A DNA stretch of 64,000 bases from Lama glama. Lineage: Eukaryota. The stretch spans positions 75,766,001 to 75,830,000 of the forward strand of contig CM052816.1 of NCBI GenBank assembly GCA_028534125.1, read 5' to 3'. Under the pieces are notes generated by a model that saw only the letters and a program-made list of their open reading frames with translations, ran no database searches and was not told the DNA's origin. A program made the position numbers and the translations under genes. This document shows, in pieces, positions 4,111 to 61,054 of this stretch (positions are counted from its first letter, which is position 1; each line of letters opens with the position of its first letter).

Positions 4111-4335
4111 TGATTTGTTTAATTCTCGAAACTTTTAATGAAAAAGGCAATGGTACATACTCATGATTTTAAAAAGCAGATGCAGTAATAACAAAAGACA
4201 TGCAGTGAAGAGTCCTGCCCTTACTCCTGTCCTCTAGTCTCTTAGTTCACTTTCCCACAGGCAGCCACAGTTACCAGTTTCTTAATATCCTGCCAAAGAG
4301 TATATTTATAAACATGTGGGTCTAATAGATCTTTT

Positions 4336-4486
4336 TTTGTTTTGTTTTGGTTTTTTTTTTCCTAGGGGGGGCAGTAATTAGGTTTATTTATTTATTTACT
4401 TTTAAAAGAAGGGACTGGGGATTGAACCCAGGACCTCGTGCATGCTAAACACACACTCTACCACTGAGCTATACACTCCCCACCCT
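4336..4486 (-). mobile_element. tRNA-derived SINE (Vic-1-like)
   Basis: Same head and tail; TSD atagatctttt at 4325-4335 and 4487-4497. Confidence 0.9.
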
Positions 4487-5163
4487 ATAGATCTTTTAAA
4501 ACATCATAAATGATAGCATTCTAAATGTAATATATATACCATTCTCTCCCTTGCCTTTTTTACTTAATATATCTTAGAGATCATTTTGTATTCTTACATA
4601 AAGAACTGTTTTTTTTTTTTTTAATAGCTCTATAGTAGATCTCTTACTATCCAGGCTTTTACTGTCTAAAATCAGGAACTAGAGAAATTTGGATATAAAG
4701 GATTACTTGTATTTCATTATATGATGTATTAAAATATGTTAACCATACCTCTTTTGAAATAGGATATTTTCATCTTTAATTTTTACAAGTGATATAGTGG
4801 ATATCCTTCAAAGGTCTAAGTGTGCATACATACAGTTCAATCTAAAAGAAAGATTTATAGAAATGGAATTACTAGATCATATTAGATGTACGTTTAAAAA
4901 AATACAGTTTACTTTTTTCTTTTTTTTTGAGTATATTGTTATCAAGAAACAGACTTGGATTTTAATGGCTGTGCATGTGTGTACATGTATGAAGATAGGG
5001 GTCATGCATATAACTTTCCATTAAAAACTTTTAATTTCCTAATAATATTCTAGTGACTCATACGTATTTAGTTTTGCAATTGTCCATAAGATTTTTTTTG
5101 TAGCTGATTTTTTGACTGAAGACCGATCAAGACTCATAACAAGGTTATGTGCTTTTAGTCTCT

Positions 5164-15077: not shown

Positions 15078-15205
15078 TTATTTTCTGTTTTTTTCAATTA
15101 AAAAAATTATTCATTTATTTATTATGGAGGTACTGGGGATAAATAGAACCCAGGACGTTGTACAGCTAAGCACCTGCTCTGCTACTGAGCTATCAGCCTC
15201 CCCAC
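15078..15205 (-). mobile_element. tRNA-derived SINE (Vic-1-like), diverged
   Basis: Same family head; imperfect TSD aaataYactcaYttttc at 15061-15077 and 15206-15222. Confidence 0.85.
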
Positions 15206-15264
15206 AAATATACTCATTTTTCAAAACAAAGCAGACAAAAAACTCTGACCTTATTTCCCCCTAG

Positions 15265-15618
15265 GCAATTCGAAGTTTTCAAGTAGCCCTTCACATCTAT
15301 CCAATGAACCCTGAAATGTGGAAAGAAGACCTTTCTTGGGCAAGAACACTACAGGAGCAGCAGAAGGTAGCACAGAGGATTAAAAAAAGTGACGCATCCG
15401 CAGAGGTAACGCAGTTCTCACCAAAGTCAATTCCTGACTATGACTTTGAAAGTGATGAGATTGTTGCTGTTTGTGCAGCTATTGCTGAAAAGCAGAAGAC
15501 GGTTTCCGCAAGTAAAACAATGGTTATCGTGTCGGCATCCGGGACTGTGGAGACTGTAACTGAGGAGGAAGATGGTGCTGCACCTCCAGATGGCTCTGTT
15601 TTTATCAAAGCCCGGTGA
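15265..15618 (+). CDS. TTC33: TTC33 last coding exon
   Basis: Branch-like ctctgac + ttatttccccctag|GCA ATT CGA; AIRSFQVALHIYPMNPEMWKEDLSWAR...PPDGSVFIKAR, stop TGA 15616-15618; contains ORF-track 15304..15618. Confidence 0.96.
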   Translation, partial: AIRSFQVALHIYPMNPEMWKEDLSWARTLQEQQKVAQRIKKSDASAEVTQFSPKSIPDYDFESDEIVAVCAAIAEKQKTVSASKTMVIVSASGTVETVTEEEDGAAPPDGSVFIKAR

Positions 15619-28838: not shown

Positions 28839-29429
28839 CTATATACATTTTTCTGTTAGGTTCAGTGTTTCATTGGGGAATGTGACTTGCAGGGAGCTCC
28901 CCTTTGGGGCAGGCCCCGCCCGGCTACTCCCGCCAACCTCATCCACCAGTAAGACGCTCTCTGAGTCCTGACCCTGGGAGGAGTCCGAGGTCTCTGACAT
29001 TCGCAGAGTCCTCAGCGATGTGGTGTCTGTCTGGGTCAGGCCCATGCCAGGCACACCTGGAAGCAGATTCCTGCCTCCGAGGCCGTTTTCACTGAGGTCC
29101 GGCATGTAGAGGAGGGTCTGGGACGTGCTGCTGACCTCCTTCAGCTCCCGAGAGAGGAAGGAGCGAGAGTGGCCGGACATGGCGGAGGATGTCCTTCTAC
29201 TGTCCGAGCAGTGCTGCCCCGAACGCTCCCTGCGGGACCCGCCGATGCGGCAGAAGAGGCATTTGATCTTCTCTATCGCTTTACTGAGCACTGTCTTCCG
29301 CAGGAGGATATATATCCAGGGGTCCAGGATAGGGTTCACAGCAGCAATTCGGATGGCCTGCAAATCTGGGTTTTTGCTGATGACTTTCTCCGAATCTGGC
29401 TGATATAACTGGTTGATGAACACTCGCAC
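28839..29429 (-). CDS. PTGER4: PTGER4 exon 3 coding part (end of TM6, TM7, C-terminal tail)
   Basis: Acceptor tttacgcag|GTG CGA GTG TTC; VRVFINQLY...RIAAVNPILDPWIYILLRK...LNLTEKCI, tandem stops TAG TAG (28841-28836); DPWIY motif of prostanoid receptors. Confidence 0.97.
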   Translation of the reverse strand: MRVFINQLYQPDSEKVISKNPDLQAIRIAAVNPILDPWIYILLRKTVLSKAIEKIKCLFCRIGGSRRERSGQHCSDSRRTSSAMSGHSRSFLSRELKEVSSTSQTLLYMPDLSENGLGGRNLLPGVPGMGLTQTDTTSLRTLRMSETSDSSQGQDSESVLLVDEVGGSSRAGPAPKGSSLQVTFPNETLNLTEKCI

Positions 29430-30259
29430 CTGCGTAAATGAGATGTCCACATTTAGTGCTTTGCATTAGTTACCTGGGAAAACATCTGCATGCAATGTCT
29501 AACGAAGTAATGTTAGGTAGCGGCTCCCTTTTCTGTGAATAATTGCCAAGAAAAGAGCAGCATACACAATAAGCCTCAGAAAAACCACTGATAAACATGT
29601 TTCTAGTTAGTGTAACTTTAATACATTTGTAACTACTTTGTGAATATCTTCACCAGATCAAAGATGGCATAAAAAATGAGCTGTGTTACAGGTAACATGT
29701 GCATAAAGTTTCCTGGAGAACAATCTTATTAACTTCATTTCTGTGAGTGCTTTCAAGCTTTTGTAATTCTACTGAAGTATCTTTTTTACTCCCAATAGCT
29801 ATTTATTTCCCTTATTTCAGTTGACACTGTATATACTTAAATGAAACTTACTTTGGAAGTCAACTAATCATCTAATCACAGAAAAGCCCAGAGATGCCTT
29901 TATTTTAGAGTTTAAAAAGCATATACTGAAACCACTATCTGAATTTCCTATGCTCTAGAATGACCAGAGAGTCATTTTTATTTTCTCTATGAGTCTGTTC
30001 CCCAGTTATAATAATCATCTAATGTTATTAACTCGAGCTTCAAAAACCTTTTCTATATGTCAGCTGTTCTTCAGTCAATCAATCAATAGGGGAAAAAAGG
30101 GGGGATCTTGCCTTGAGTTTTGATGGATGAGTGAAACTTTGCTAAACTTAAAAAGGACGTAAGTAACCCTAATTACCTGCCTCCCCCAAGTAATTTAGGT
30201 GAGAAATGCAGGGAGAAAACTGGAATGGTTTTCTTTTTTTTATATAAAAGATCTCGGTT

Positions 30260-30441
30260 GGGGGGAGGGTATAGCTCAGTGGTAGAGTGCCTGCTTAGCA
30301 CACACGAGGTCTTGGGTTCAATCCCCAGTACCTCCACTAAGAAATAAATAAATAAAATAAATAAACCTAATTACCTATCCCCCACTAAAAATTAAAAAAA
30401 CAAAACAAAACAAAACAAAAACAGTTTAAAAAAATAAATAA
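30260..30441 (+). mobile_element. tRNA-derived SINE (Vic-1-like)
   Basis: GGGGAGGGTATAGCTCAGTGGTAGAG...GGTTCAATCCCCAGTACCTCC + (TAAA)n/(CAAAA)n tail; TSD ataaaagatct at 30244-30254 and 30442-30452. Confidence 0.92.
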
Positions 30442-33456: not shown

Positions 33457-33570
33457 AGGGAATAGCTCAGTGGTAGAGCACGTGTTTGGTGTGCCCAAGG
33501 TCCTGGGTTCAATCTCCACTGCCTCTGTTTAAGGGGAAAAAATGTAAGTAAATTATAATTTTTTTTTTTA
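33457..33570 (+). mobile_element. tRNA-derived SINE (Vic-1-like), diverged
   Basis: ATAGCTCAGTGGTAGAGC...GGTTCAATCTCC; flanking direct repeat aagaatca at 33445-33452 and 33571-33578. Confidence 0.8.
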
Positions 33571-36375: not shown

Positions 36376-36492
36376 ACTTTTTTTTTAAATTTTAATTTAA
36401 TTTTTTTCCCTAAACAGGGGCGCTAGGGTTTGAATCCAGGATCTTGTGCATGCCAGGCATGCACTCTACCACTGAGCAATCCCCCCCACCCC
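36376..36492 (-). mobile_element. tRNA-derived SINE (Vic-1-like)
   Basis: Reverse-complement head; TSD ctagtgcatt at 36366-36375 and 36493-36502. Confidence 0.85.
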
Positions 36493-37575
36493 CTAGTGCA
36501 TTCTTTTCTAGTGACAGGCAAAGTTCAGGAGAACTAGGTAGGTCCTCCAGCTTCCTGCTTATATTTCAAAAGTTAACCCAAAGGCAATTTTAAAGAAAGC
36601 AGTGTCCTGAAAATGAGGTGTACCAAAACTCAAACACATATACTATTGGGTAGGTCAAAATTAGAGGGAGACATGATGTAATATTACAGGAGCAGGGCTT
36701 GGAGTCAGATGAGTCTGAGGTCCATCACAAGCTGCAAGACTCTGGCTCTCCAGTAAATAAGACAACCCTCTCTAAAGCTCCATTTCTCTAGAACGACACT
36801 GTACCTCTCACAGTTGAGAACTCAAATTCAATACCCCATGTACATCAGCCTGCCCATAATAGGCCCTCTGAGAAACTTTGCTTGCCAGGTCCTGAGAGAA
36901 AAAGAAGGACCCCGATTAGGGCCACGCTTGGGTAGGAAGTGTGACCCACTGAGATATTCTCCCAGAGCACAGCATGGTAAAGAGCAGGGCATGTAGCTTG
37001 ACAGCGTATTTTAAGCAAGTCATTCCCTATGGGAAGTGAGGGAGTTAGACTAGACCAGAAAGCAACCAATATCTCTTCTAGCTCTAAAACTCTACATAAG
37101 CTACAAAAAAAGAAAAAAAACCCAACATAAATCAAAACATAAAAAACCCACTGTTGCAAGGAGCGTACACCAAAGAGATCACAACCCCTGAGTTTGGATT
37201 CTGCCCTTGACAGAGTGGAAGACGAGGCCAAGTCACACTACAGCGGTTTCCCCTCCACATCTGACAGAGAGTGGCAGGTGTTCCCGGAAGGCTCAAGAAC
37301 AATGTCAGGCAGCAAAGGGTAGGGGCTGTCCCGGGGGTAGAAGGGAAACTTGGCTTTCGGGGAAAGAAACTCGGAGATGTGAGGGGAAAGCACCTGTTAC
37401 ATCTCTTAAGGGATGCGGCCTAAAAGGAGGTTGGGCCCGTTGTGAGAAGCTGAATGTGGGACCCCCATCCCCGAGCTGGAGGAGACGCGTTTACCGCCGC
37501 GGAAAGAGCTGGAGACGGAGGAGGGAGGTGAATGCAGGAAAAGGGCCGAGTGGGGCCCTCGCCCCAGCCACTCAC

Positions 37576-38454
37576 CACGAGCGGGATGGAGCAGATGAGC
37601 ACCACCAGGGAAGTGGCGATGAGTAAGATGACCATCTGGATCTCAGCGCCCGCGATGCGGCGGAAGCTCCGGCGGCGGCGAAAGTCGCTGAGGCGCGGCA
37701 GGGCGGGGGAGGCGGCGGCCGGGGTGCCGCGGCAAGCGGCTGAGGCCACGGCGACGGCGGCGGCGGCCGCGTGGTGCTGCTCCGTGCCCAGCGAGGTGCG
37801 GCGCATGAACTGTCGGTGCATACGGAGCAGCGCGCCGCACACGAGCACGTTGCAGAGCACCGTGGCGAGAATGAGGAAGGAACTGAAGCCCGCGTACATG
37901 TAGGAGAAGGCGGCGTGCGCCGTCACGTTGGTGGTCCAGTCGATGAAGCACCAGGTTTTCGGGTACTGCAGCCGCGAGCTGCCGAGGCCCATGTTGGGCA
38001 GCGCGCAGAAGAGCACGTTGGACGCGTAGACCGCGAAGAGCGTGAGACCCGCCAGCCGCTTGTCCACGTAGTGGTTGTAGAAGTAGGCGTGGTTGATGGC
38101 CAGGTAGCGCTCGATACTCATGGCACAGATGATGCTGAGCCCCGACAGGCCGAAGAAGAGCAGGATGAAGGTGCTGTACTCGCACAGTGCCGGGCCCCCG
38201 GGCCACTGGCCCTTCATGTACGTGGCGATGGTCACAGGGCTCACCAGCAACGTGCCCAGCAGGTCGGTGACCGCCAGCCCGCATACCAGTGTGTAGAAGG
38301 TCGTCTCCTTCTGCTCCTTGCGCGATTTACACAGAACCACGATGGCCACAAGGTTGCCCACCACCCCAAAGATGAACATCACCGCCGGGATGGTCACCGG
38401 GCTGTTTAGTCGGTCGGAGGCCTGGGCGGACGCATTGGCCCCAGGCGTGGCCAT
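37576..38454 (-). CDS. PTGER4: PTGER4 exon 2 coding part (N-terminus to TM6, 293 codons)
   Basis: Kozak accaccATGG at 38454; MATPGANASAQASDRLNSPVTIPAVMFIFGVVGNLVAIVVL...ERY...TWCFIDW...LICSIPLV|gtgagt donor; acceptor ccacccccag| at 38496, so the exon starts at 38495. With exon 3 this gives a 489-aa EP4 receptor. Confidence 0.98.
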
Positions 38455-38953
38455 GGTGGTGGCCGGCAGTACAGTCTTGGAGTGCGAGGCTGGGTCTGGG
38501 GGTGGAAGGAGATAGACAAAGAGGCGATGAGTGGAAATGACCACTTGCAAGGTGTCAGACCCGCGCCCAAGAAACAGTATGTGGTGAGACCAGGGGAGCA
38601 ACTCGATCCTACATTGTGGACTGTAGCCACTTACCAATTGCGGCTATCGAAATCTCCAGGGTCCGGATACGTCCTGCCAGCAGCACCACTCTACTGGCAT
38701 TAATATTTATAAATTGATACTGCCATTCTCTCCTCCTCCTCCCCCAACCCAACTCACTTCACTGCCAAGATGAACAAGACCTATCTCAAGGGGAAATTTG
38801 CTCTCTCGTTTTCCCGGCAGATTCTGAGTCAATAAAAGTCTCATTGAAAGCAAGATATGTTAGATAATTTGGAGAGCGCGCTCTTTCCTCCTTGGCTCTG
38901 CTCAAGGAGCTCTCACTCACCACACTTGCCCCGTGTCCCCAACCCTACCTCAC

Positions 38954-39590
38954 CTGTGGTGGCCGCGGCGATGGCAGCTGCGTAAGCCTCCAGGGTCAAG
39001 CCTCAGTTGTCCTGGACACGCCTTCAACCTGCACTCAGCCTTGCCCTGCTCAATGTGGAGTTGCCAAGCCTTCGCTTTCTAAGAGCCTACTTTCGCTGGC
39101 TGCCAGTTTTCCGGAACTGGAGTCCGTCCGTGGTCAGCTTTCAAAAACTTGGAGAACCAGAAGGGCAGCGGGATGGGTCAGCGAAGACTGATCGTGGATT
39201 TTCTCTCTCTCCCCCCTCCCTCTCTCTCTCTCTCTCTTCGTTTCTTCAAAGACGATCCAAGCTTTGAGGGGTCCGCAGGTCTCGTTCGCGGGCGGACAGC
39301 GCTCAGGTGTGCAGCCGCGCGCGCAGGTGGCACTGAGCTTCTGTCCCCGATTTGGGTCGCCCTCCTTCCCAGCCCAGGGCAGCGCGGACGGCTACCGGGG
39401 CTGGTGGCTGCAGCTGAGACAGCTTATGGTGCCCTGGGGGCGGCTTGAGGTCCACTCGGCCTGAGGCTCTGACCTGGGGCAGTTCATCTTCCTCTCGGGC
39501 TGCCGGGTTTCGAGCTCCGCTCTTGCCCTTCCAGCCTCTGTACAAACTTTTCTCCTGCTTCAAGTTTCCCTGGCGGAGGCGGAGACACAC
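38954..39590 (-). other. PTGER4: PTGER4 non-coding exon 1 (5'UTR); TSS approximate
   Basis: Donor ccacag|gtgagg at 38954/38953 gives a 458-nt intron 1 to the acceptor at 38496; matches the known three-exon PTGER4 layout; 5' end inferred from the CCAAT/GC boxes just upstream. Confidence 0.75.
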
Positions 39591-39594
39591 AGCG

Positions 39595-39870
39595 CGCGGC
39601 CAGGGCTCCCATTGGCTAGACGGGAGGGGGCGGGGCGCGTGCTCGCTCCTCCGCGCCCCCAGGAAGCGCGGCGGACCGGAGGGCGGGGCTCCGGGCTGCG
39701 TGGGTCCTGCAGCGCCTCGCGGGGCGGCTCCCCGCGGCTTTCCCGCCCTCCGAGGGGCGGGGGTGGTTGAGACGTGGCCCCGGCGCCTCAGGCTGATGGT
39801 GCTGAGAGGCTGCCGTCTGTGGAGACCCCCGGGGAAGCCCCGGCGCTCTCCTGTGCGCATGCTTAAGCTA
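39595..39870 (-). promoter_or_regulatory. PTGER4 proximal promoter: CCAAT box, GC boxes, NRF1-like site
   Basis: ATTGG at 39611-39615 (CCAAT on minus strand), GGGGCGGGG at 39627-39635 plus further GGGCGG boxes, TGCGCATGC at 39854-39862. Confidence 0.75.
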
Positions 39871-40328
39871 CTCCGAACTCGGCATCCAGGGGGGCCAGCT
39901 CTGGAAACAGCATCTCTTCTTCCTCACTGCCTCTCGCTCCGAGTGGGCTATTTCTCGCACCTTCCACACACGGGTCGCAACATCTGGGTGCTGGAAGGGA
40001 GGTCAGCTGCTTAGGACCCTACCTTGGAGCGGCCGAGGTGTGTGTGCGCGCGCGCGGCCGCGGGAGGAGAAATAGGGTGGAAAACTAGGATGTGTGGGCG
40101 CGTGGCCCCGGGTCAGAAGTAGGGTGAACGCAACGGTAGTGTGGGTGGATGGGCGGGGAAGCAGCCAAGACTCCATCCTCTCACCGTGAAAGGAGTTCGT
40201 TGGCAGTGCCCAGGCTGTCGGCTGTGCTCGGTAGGGCAGCCCCAGGCAAAAGGAGGAGACGGGACAGCAACCTCTCCCGGCGCAGGTGGCAGAGCCCTCC
40301 GTCGATGCGGAGAGATGGCCCACGGCAG

Positions 40329-40435
40329 GGGAGGAGAATGCAGGAAAAGGGCCGAGTGGGGCCATCGCCCCAGCCGCTCACCACGAGCGGGATGGAGCAG
40401 ATGAGCACCACCAGGGAAGTGGCGATGAGATGACC
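40329..40435 (-). repeat. Ectopic direct copy of the PTGER4 exon 2/intron 2 junction (source 37523-37633)
   Basis: 40336-40429 matches 37530-37623 at 92/94 nt, offset 2,806 bp, same orientation. Confidence 0.95.
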
Positions 40436-41184
40436 CAGGGGAGGGTCAGTAAGGGTGGGAGGACTGTCTGCCTGCCCGCGGAAGCCTTTCTCTGGCTCCG
40501 AAGGACTTCTCCGCCCTGTAAGAACGGTTAGACCCAGCTTCGTGCCTTGGCCCTGTTACATTTGTTAGACACCTTCACCAGGAATCCTTGGAAAGGCTGA
40601 TGCAGTGAAACTAGGATTTGCAAGTCATTCGAGTAAAGGAATTCTCCAGTCATTACCTCCATGGTTAAACTCTTGGAAAATCCTATTTGCTCTACCTTTT
40701 ATCTCCAGATACAATTTAACTTCTTTTGTGGAGGGAACAGTTTCTCTTGTTCATTACTCATTGTTCGCTTCTTTTTGTGCTATTACCTAAAGTCAGAAGG
40801 GAAAACTAAAAAAAAAAAAAAAGAGAAAAATTTCGTGGAATAATTATAACTGCTTCACCATTTTTTTAAACCATAAAACGAGATTATGTGAGCTGTCGCA
40901 ATTTCAGTTCTTAGGAAAACCTATTTTCATGGGTTATACACATGCATTTTAACACATTGCATTTCCTCACAGAGTAGGTAAATAATTCTTTCATATGGTA
41001 AAGCAGGCACTCAAGCCTTAAATGTTATTTCGTGAATGAACAAACCTAAGAATTTATCTGGTTCTCCTGTTATTCTCAAATGACACAGTGACAAATGAGT
41101 AATAGAAGAAACATGGAGGGCATTCCAGATTTCAACTAATTACAGGACATAAAATATCTAGAATCACACAGGCACCATGTGGAG

Positions 41185-60888: not shown

Positions 60889-61054
60889 GTGGGTTTTTTA
60901 AAAAATTTTATTTTTAGGGTTTTTTTTTTTTTTTGGTGGAGGAGATAGGTTTACTTACTTATTTATTTTTGGAGGAGGTACTGAGGATTGAACCCAGGAC
61001 CTTGTATATGCTAGGCATGTGCTCTACCACTTGAGCTACACTCTCCTTCTATGT
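60889..61054 (-). mobile_element. tRNA-derived SINE (Vic-1-like)
   Basis: Reverse-complement head; TSD atctagtaaagaga at 60875-60888 and 61055-61068. Confidence 0.9.

Follow-up and report, generated by a model that had tools for sequence, protein, structure and literature searches.

The 64-kb window analyzed here (64,000 nucleotides, the whole stretch of DNA under study) contains, upstream of PTGER4, a 101-nt copy of the exon 2/intron 2 junction of that same gene, and the copy is real. We consider it probable that templated repair of a staggered DNA break produced the copy, once, in the germ line of an ancestral camelid, and that it has since drifted without function. The one feature that would mark it as an insertion is the target-site duplication (TSD) at its ends. 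PTGER4 itself lies on the minus strand; its product matches Pfam 7tm_1 (E = 8.7e-40), and its named relatives are EP4 receptors. The gene parts and the two tracts are placed as follows.

28839..29429, minus strand: coding part of PTGER4 exon 3 (TM7 and tail), starting at 29429
37576..38495, minus strand: PTGER4 exon 2 (TM1-TM6), with the ATG at 38454, placed by translation, splice sites and Pfam
38954..39760, minus strand: likely exon 1 and core promoter (donor 38954|38953, CCAAT at 39615, GC boxes at 39633-39760, CpG island)
37529..37633, minus strand: source (donor) tract across the exon 2/intron 2 junction, placed by the self-match and the exon 2 donor at 37576|37575
40335..40435, minus strand: inserted (acceptor) copy, 101 nt, placed by its match to 37529-37633 and in frame in Camelus ferus protein P0002

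The first-pass annotation had described a direct match of 92/94 nt between 40336-40429 and 37530-37623, spaced 2,806 bp apart. This match was reproduced, and a BLAST self-match of the window lengthens the core to 98/101 (E = 5e-42). The copy takes in the final 60 nt of PTGER4 exon 2, less a gap of 4 nt, along with the splice donor and 47 nt from the start of intron 2. It differs from the source at 40335, 40364, and 40376 in addition to the single 4-nt gap, and the longest unbroken identity between the two is 53 bp. Alignment confirmed that 48 exonic nt are identical between the copies and that the splice donor is retained as GTG|GTGAGC in the copy versus GTG|GTGAGT in the source, with the change at +6. 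The match had also been said to resume at ATGACC past the gap; as only 12 of 3,722 other positions do as well, this is not a chance match and ATGACC belongs to the copy. Within the window the copied tract has one other copy, the source, and the remaining self-matches are interspersed repeats (~65-90%) or short simple repeats. Seven tRNA-like SINE copies, 73-86% alike and presumably of the camelid Vic-1 type, lie at 696-794, 4332-4498, 15107-15207, 30245-30418, 33457-33561, 36387-36495, and 60906-61046, and LINE-like pieces at 21.6-22.2, 47.1-48.0, and 63.0-63.7 kb. A 117-aa open frame at 15265-15618 (plus strand) had no Pfam match; we take it to resemble the final coding exon of TTC33, a gene that adjoins PTGER4 tail to tail.

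The presence of the copy in sequencing runs was assessed from word shares in short-read contigs. Of the 821 31-mers in 39950-40800, 101 (~12%) occur only in the copy or across its junctions, so a genome without the copy could hold at most ~0.88 of the words. Among the runs listed, 14/24 hold 0.96-1.00 of them; with two possible source runs set aside, 12 runs from five studies and four organism codes remain at this level. The locus is GC-rich, as might be expected of an assembly artefact, but such an artefact has next to no chance of accounting for the copy: the 12 runs exceed the ceiling for genomes that lack it, and the independent assembly of Camelus ferus has the copy with differences of its own. 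Six further runs (five RNA, one uncertain) show word shares of 0.07-0.42, which may reflect DNA carry-over or antisense promoter transcripts.

The first-pass annotation stated that there was no TSD; this is wrong, since the copy is flanked immediately on either side by a perfect direct repeat of 9 bp. The 9-mer CAGGGGAGG occurs at 40326-40334 and 40436-40444 and at no further position in the window on either strand, and its last six bases recur beside the source tract.

40326..40334, plus strand: left copy of the 9-bp TSD, a 9-mer found just twice in the window
40436..40444, plus strand: right copy of the 9-bp TSD, the same 9-mer as at 40326-40334
37523..37528, plus strand: GGGAGG microhomology adjoining the source tract, equal to the 3' end of the TSD

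A repeat of 9 bp was reached by none of 1,080 position pairs of equal geometry at any tolerance, and by 0/1,334, 1/1,307, and 29/1,311 local random pairs when the boundaries were allowed to shift by 0, 3, and 8 nt, respectively. Judging from the letters at the two sites, the final 6 nt of the left TSD (GGGAGG) likely served as the priming microhomology: under strict scoring, the 7-column extension past the 94-nt core was reached in 1/150 shuffles and from 0/132 island anchors. A reading of the insert as 93 nt long, flanked on either side by microhomology, was also considered and was dropped because the 9-bp TSD bounds 101 nt. The earlier statement that poly(A) is lacking holds, as the longest A/T run within ~40 nt of either end is 2, and a search at the upstream copy for a poly(A) signal and an L1-type TTTT/A target found neither. 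L1-mediated insertion or a processed retrocopy was rejected on these grounds; a TSD is present, but poly(A), signal, and TTTT/A target are absent, and intron sequence is kept.

Under the mechanism that we propose, a staggered break would leave a 9-nt 3' overhang, CAGGGGAGG, on the plus strand, whose last six bases could pair with the complement of GGGAGG in intron 2, 2.8 kb off in the same CpG island. A repair polymerase would then copy ~105 nt across the splice junction, and the new strand would be rejoined to the other break end, with fill-in doubling the 9-mer. The template is assumed to be DNA. Copying errors and early mutations are equally possible causes of the incorrect initial base and of the 4-nt slip toward the opposite end. 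The two changes that the C. ferus copy also has affect the first nucleotide copied and a site 6 nt inside the other end of the tract, and such end-placed changes would be expected of error-prone repair synthesis by polymerase theta.

Because the priming end is on the plus strand, the template carries PTGER4 sense sequence, so that either a transcription-exposed DNA strand or unspliced pre-mRNA is a possible template (the prior chance of the sense strand is one in two). The first-pass conclusion that the copy is not a retrocopy therefore holds for a processed copy, given the retained intron and the missing poly(A), and does not extend to an unspliced pre-mRNA template. It is unlikely, though worth naming, that the same single repair event used nascent unspliced PTGER4 pre-mRNA, with reverse transcriptase primed from the break end. 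The sense orientation would agree with this at even prior odds, the source is a transcribed gene beside the break, and RNA-templated patches at breaks are among the events described in PMC5110952. The experimental RNA-templated insertions in the available text of that paper, however, come from distant source loci and are without TSDs, whereas the DNA-capture class, as characterized in PMC2671141, typically draws on nearby donors; the lack of poly(A), poly(A) signal, and TTTT/A target also counts against an RNA template.

The DNA-templated event that we favor can be placed in time using Camelus ferus. A stop-free frame over the copy (40555-40184) matches the C. ferus ab initio protein CB1_001954001 (P0002; E = 2.3e-59), which holds the copy and both flanks and is identical at 104/111 columns; the C. 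ferus evidence is this one ab initio protein, at the protein level. The upstream copies of the window and C. ferus both have the altered initial base (40335) and the 4-nt gap. The change at 40364 is absent from C. ferus, which has E there as does the window's source, while the window's upstream copy has D; this mismatch arose after the split and has stayed unrepaired. At intron codon 6, both camelid copies have E or D with first base G, versus Q in all 13 other read-throughs that have the motif (those named are from grey, sperm, and bowhead whale and pig). The camelid-type G, together with the sharing by C. ferus, indicates that the copy is camelid-sourced and older than the split between the window's lineage and C. 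ferus, and the upper bound on its age would hang on that single base. The first-pass suggestion of a recent templated insertion is thus half sustained: the TSD and microhomology make templated insertion the plain interpretation, and the same copy in C. ferus contradicts a recent date. C. ferus and the window differ by ~2% in nearby non-coding DNA, and the split of Old and New World camelids is put at 11-25 million years and that of dromedary and Bactrian camels at 5-8 million years in the source consulted (PMC4884201). The window does not come from C. ferus, as a genome of that type could contain no more than 0.79 of the words; with five organism codes at 0.96 or above, it is probably from a New World camelid and less likely from a dromedary. 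The copy would accordingly have persisted for 11-25 million years in the former case and for 5-8 million years in the latter.

None of the C. ferus models contains the source copy, since P0002 ends inside exon 2 and P0026 begins at exon 3. In window coordinates, the pieces of P0002 are 45402-45363, 40515-40190, 38695-38636, and 38495-37800; CB1_001954001 joins upstream non-coding pieces, the copy included, to exon 2, and exon 3 forms the separate model P0026, which differs from the window at 1 position in the first 169 aa of that exon. An assembly gap within the GC-rich loop probably lies behind this division of the gene.

Among 89 proteins compared, 76 of them with TM6, P0002 is the only one with the upstream context. 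Protein searches with the upstream frame gave 1 match among 40 candidates, 5 among 1,245, and 3 in 1.84 billion representatives, and the search with the exon 2 read-through gave 16 matches among 407 candidates. Two of the upstream-frame matches, P0014 and P0015, proved to be unrelated repeat proteins. These protein searches found the upstream context nowhere outside C. ferus, which is weak evidence of absence because non-coding DNA is seldom called as protein. In metagenomes scanned for contigs of mammalian hosts, a 23-nt TM6 pattern had 0 matches. A metagenome protein scan returned one locus among 61 candidates; this locus, L001, is an EP4 of 75% identity that does not look mammalian, and with just 252 bp upstream it is uninformative. 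This JGI metagenome contig (L001:253-1059) carries a vertebrate EP4 exon 2 without the Ala-rich loop, with the donor GTG|GTGAGT, and is host DNA.

Several EP4 models read into intron 2, including those of grey whale, sperm whale (isoform X2), and pig (among P0003, P0006, P0007, and P0054-P0059). Across the first 15 intron 2 codons (37530-37575), 1-2 residues vary among the camelid, whale, and pig read-throughs, and the deeper intron is less conserved; the conserved start may possibly reflect splicing enhancer G-runs. Mustela EP4 isoforms X2 and X3, which belong to the same set of models, end in other last exons, and all models of the set join at the same donor.

The age of the copy also bears on whether the two tracts have been kept alike. 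From the C. ferus model, 6 replacements over 126 non-coding codons give a divergence of ~2.1% (95% range 0.8-4.6%). At 1, 2, 3, and 4 times the split age, the copies would be expected to show 1.3, 2.6, 4.0, and 5.3 differences, compared with the 2-3 observed, and the probability of two or fewer is 0.85, 0.51, and 0.24 at 1, 2, and 3 times the split age. The copies are therefore no more alike than their age predicts; 2-3 substitutions are in line with neutral ageing from the camelid stem onward, and no gene conversion has to be invoked. If the divergence is taken at its upper limit, an age of more than twice the split would be unlikely without conversion.

The first-pass annotation had offered, as an alternative to insertion, an old duplicate homogenised by gene conversion, and had pointed to weaker similarity continuing on the intron side. 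Past the 6-nt microhomology that similarity proved not robust: with strict scoring the anchored extension was 0, and with lax scoring it was equalled by 14/150 shuffles and 15/140 island anchors. On the exon side, the anchored extension beyond the copied tract was 0. Unanchored tests of the intron-side flank gave p<0.05 in 11/40 settings, with values from p<0.005 to 0.89 depending on scoring and length, and those of the exon-side flank in 0/40. We read the unanchored intron-side signal as a common purine-rich composition, and it is the sole result that favors a longer old duplicate.

That an older, longer duplicate had its core kept alike by gene conversion is, as a consequence of these results, very improbable. 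Such a history would agree with the 92/94 core, with the borderline unanchored flank similarity, and with the intact exonic CpGs, although the latter are expected in any case because a CpG island (o/e 0.54-0.98) encloses or borders both copies. It is opposed by the TSD delimiting the tract on either side, by chance-level anchored similarity past the tract, by a divergence that fits no conversion at all, and by the post-split mismatch still standing at 40364. The longest identical run of 53 bp also falls short of the ~200 bp given for efficient conversion in rodent cells (PMC3924818). According to the available text of PMC2583991, efficient mammalian recombination involves 200-500 bp of identity (300-500 bp in human meiosis), far more than the 53 bp available here, and events on <50 bp have been reported between alpha-globin repeats ~5 kb apart. 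Unequal recombination between the PTGER4 copies, which would remove or double the promoter, exon 1, and most of exon 2, is thus possible but should be rare.

Having retained a splice donor, the copy could in principle be used. We defined a candidate exon that ends at the copied donor.

40380..40382, minus strand: copied 5' splice donor, GTG|GTGAGC, with consensus 6/9 versus 7/9 for the original
40382..40515, minus strand: candidate 134-nt cryptic exon, from the acceptor at 40516|40515 to the copied donor

The candidate exon is stop-free and in TM6 register, and its frame fits exon 3 and not the exon 2 ATG. Recruitment of the copy as a 134-nt exon of an upstream transcript, joined either to exon 3 (to encode TM6-TM7-tail) or to exon 2 (as 5' UTR), would be consistent with the stop-free frame at 40555-40184 in both species, with the acceptor at 40516 (a branch-like CTAAC and CAG|G), and with an ATG piece at 45402-45363 that ends in an 8/9 donor of fitting phase. 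The pieces of this mini-transcript show 0/58 codon changes compared with 8/98 elsewhere (p=0.026, post hoc). We nevertheless regard recruitment as quite improbable. The candidate exon has no ATG of its own; its donor has weakened to 6/9, a score equalled or exceeded by 77 minus-strand GT sites within 9.5 kb; and its acceptor fails a strict filter that five other sites pass. The apparent constraint disappears when the comparison is made with non-island pieces (0/58 versus 1/32, p=0.36) or when the TM6 codons are left out (0/42, p=0.11). None of the protein searches run returned such a protein, and the sole model with this acceptor, the C. ferus ab initio model, reads on past the copied donor. 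The compound proposal, in which a pre-mRNA patch brought in a donor that then joined an older acceptor, so that camelids gained a 134-nt exon of their own, in frame with exon 3, and a TM6-TM7-tail EP4 isoform, has only a slim chance of being correct. Purifying selection on the exon-side flank (0/29 versus 6/51, p=0.08) was considered and rejected, since other non-coding pieces are equally unchanged. The intron-side flank in the CpG island (40184-40334) differs from C. ferus at 6/51 codons, compared with 1/76 in other non-coding pieces (p=0.017), and looks locally fast-evolving.

For a copy formed by break repair and drifting since, the significance is modest. The TM6 end of exon 2 is a practical trap, in that short reads and primers placed there will map twice, and the copy has already misled the C. 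ferus ab initio gene model. It could also serve as a presence/absence marker for Camelidae. Greater importance would follow only if the copied donor were spliced, or if 2.8-kb deletions from promoter to exon 2 were segregating. A literature search, in a collection with few subscription journals, turned up no paper on PTGER4 in camelids and, among titles and the openings of abstracts, no account of an upstream exon copy.

Several known systems resemble this locus in part. Like the substrates of gene conversion and nonallelic homologous recombination (NAHR) treated in the available text of PMC3924818 and PMC2583991, the copies are direct repeats that bracket the 5' part of a gene at a spacing of 2.8 kb; unlike them, they share just 53 bp of unbroken identity and carry no sign of homogenisation. 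Templated sequence insertion polymorphisms (TSIPs), as presented in the available text of PMC5110952, are likewise patches with an intact donor, accompanied by a TSD of at least 5 bp in class 1 and by microhomology in class 2. The PTGER4 copy does not belong to class 1, since it has a 9-bp TSD but no poly(A), signal, or TTTT/A target, nor to class 2, since it has a TSD and a proximal donor. TSIPs are, moreover, polymorphic as described there, whereas the PTGER4 copy is common to two species. The "doublets" of Thomas et al., as summarized in PMC2671141, are similar in being short, local, two-copy duplications ascribed to imperfect break repair. Doublet surveys as reported in that source, however, concern near-identical duplicons of <100 bp, and the PTGER4 copy lies at the upper edge of this size and is at least as old as a camelid split.

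The closest counterpart is the repair-mediated duplication described by Pace, Sen, Batzer, and Feschotte in 2009. The available text of that study (PMC2671141) reports 824 human cases with donors at <5 kb and a mean length of 162 bp, together with 202 in cow and 192 in dog. In that text the duplications span 50-619 bp, have no poly(A), and can show microhomology (2-9 nt) and TSDs (4-21 nt); microhomology and TSD were seen together in 3 of the 39 inspected, and four of the 824 had partial exon/intron donors. The PTGER4 copy shares four features with this class: a 101-nt tract with an identifiable parent, a donor 2,806 bp away, the lack of poly(A/T), and breakpoint microhomology with a TSD. As in the cases described there, it is a non-tandem insert whose divergence from its parent is near neutral. 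The Pace pipeline, as set out in the available text, was limited to acceptors in transposons and did not cover camelids, whereas the acceptor here is the edge of a promoter CpG island; furthermore, microhomology with a TSD is a minority subtype in that report. With these differences, the upstream PTGER4 copy fits the repair-mediated duplication class, in its microhomology-plus-TSD subtype (PMC2671141). The locus is an ordinary case of a known and common kind of duplication, and also a clean, datable one outside a transposon, in which the TSD and the priming microhomology have stayed intact through at least one camelid species split.
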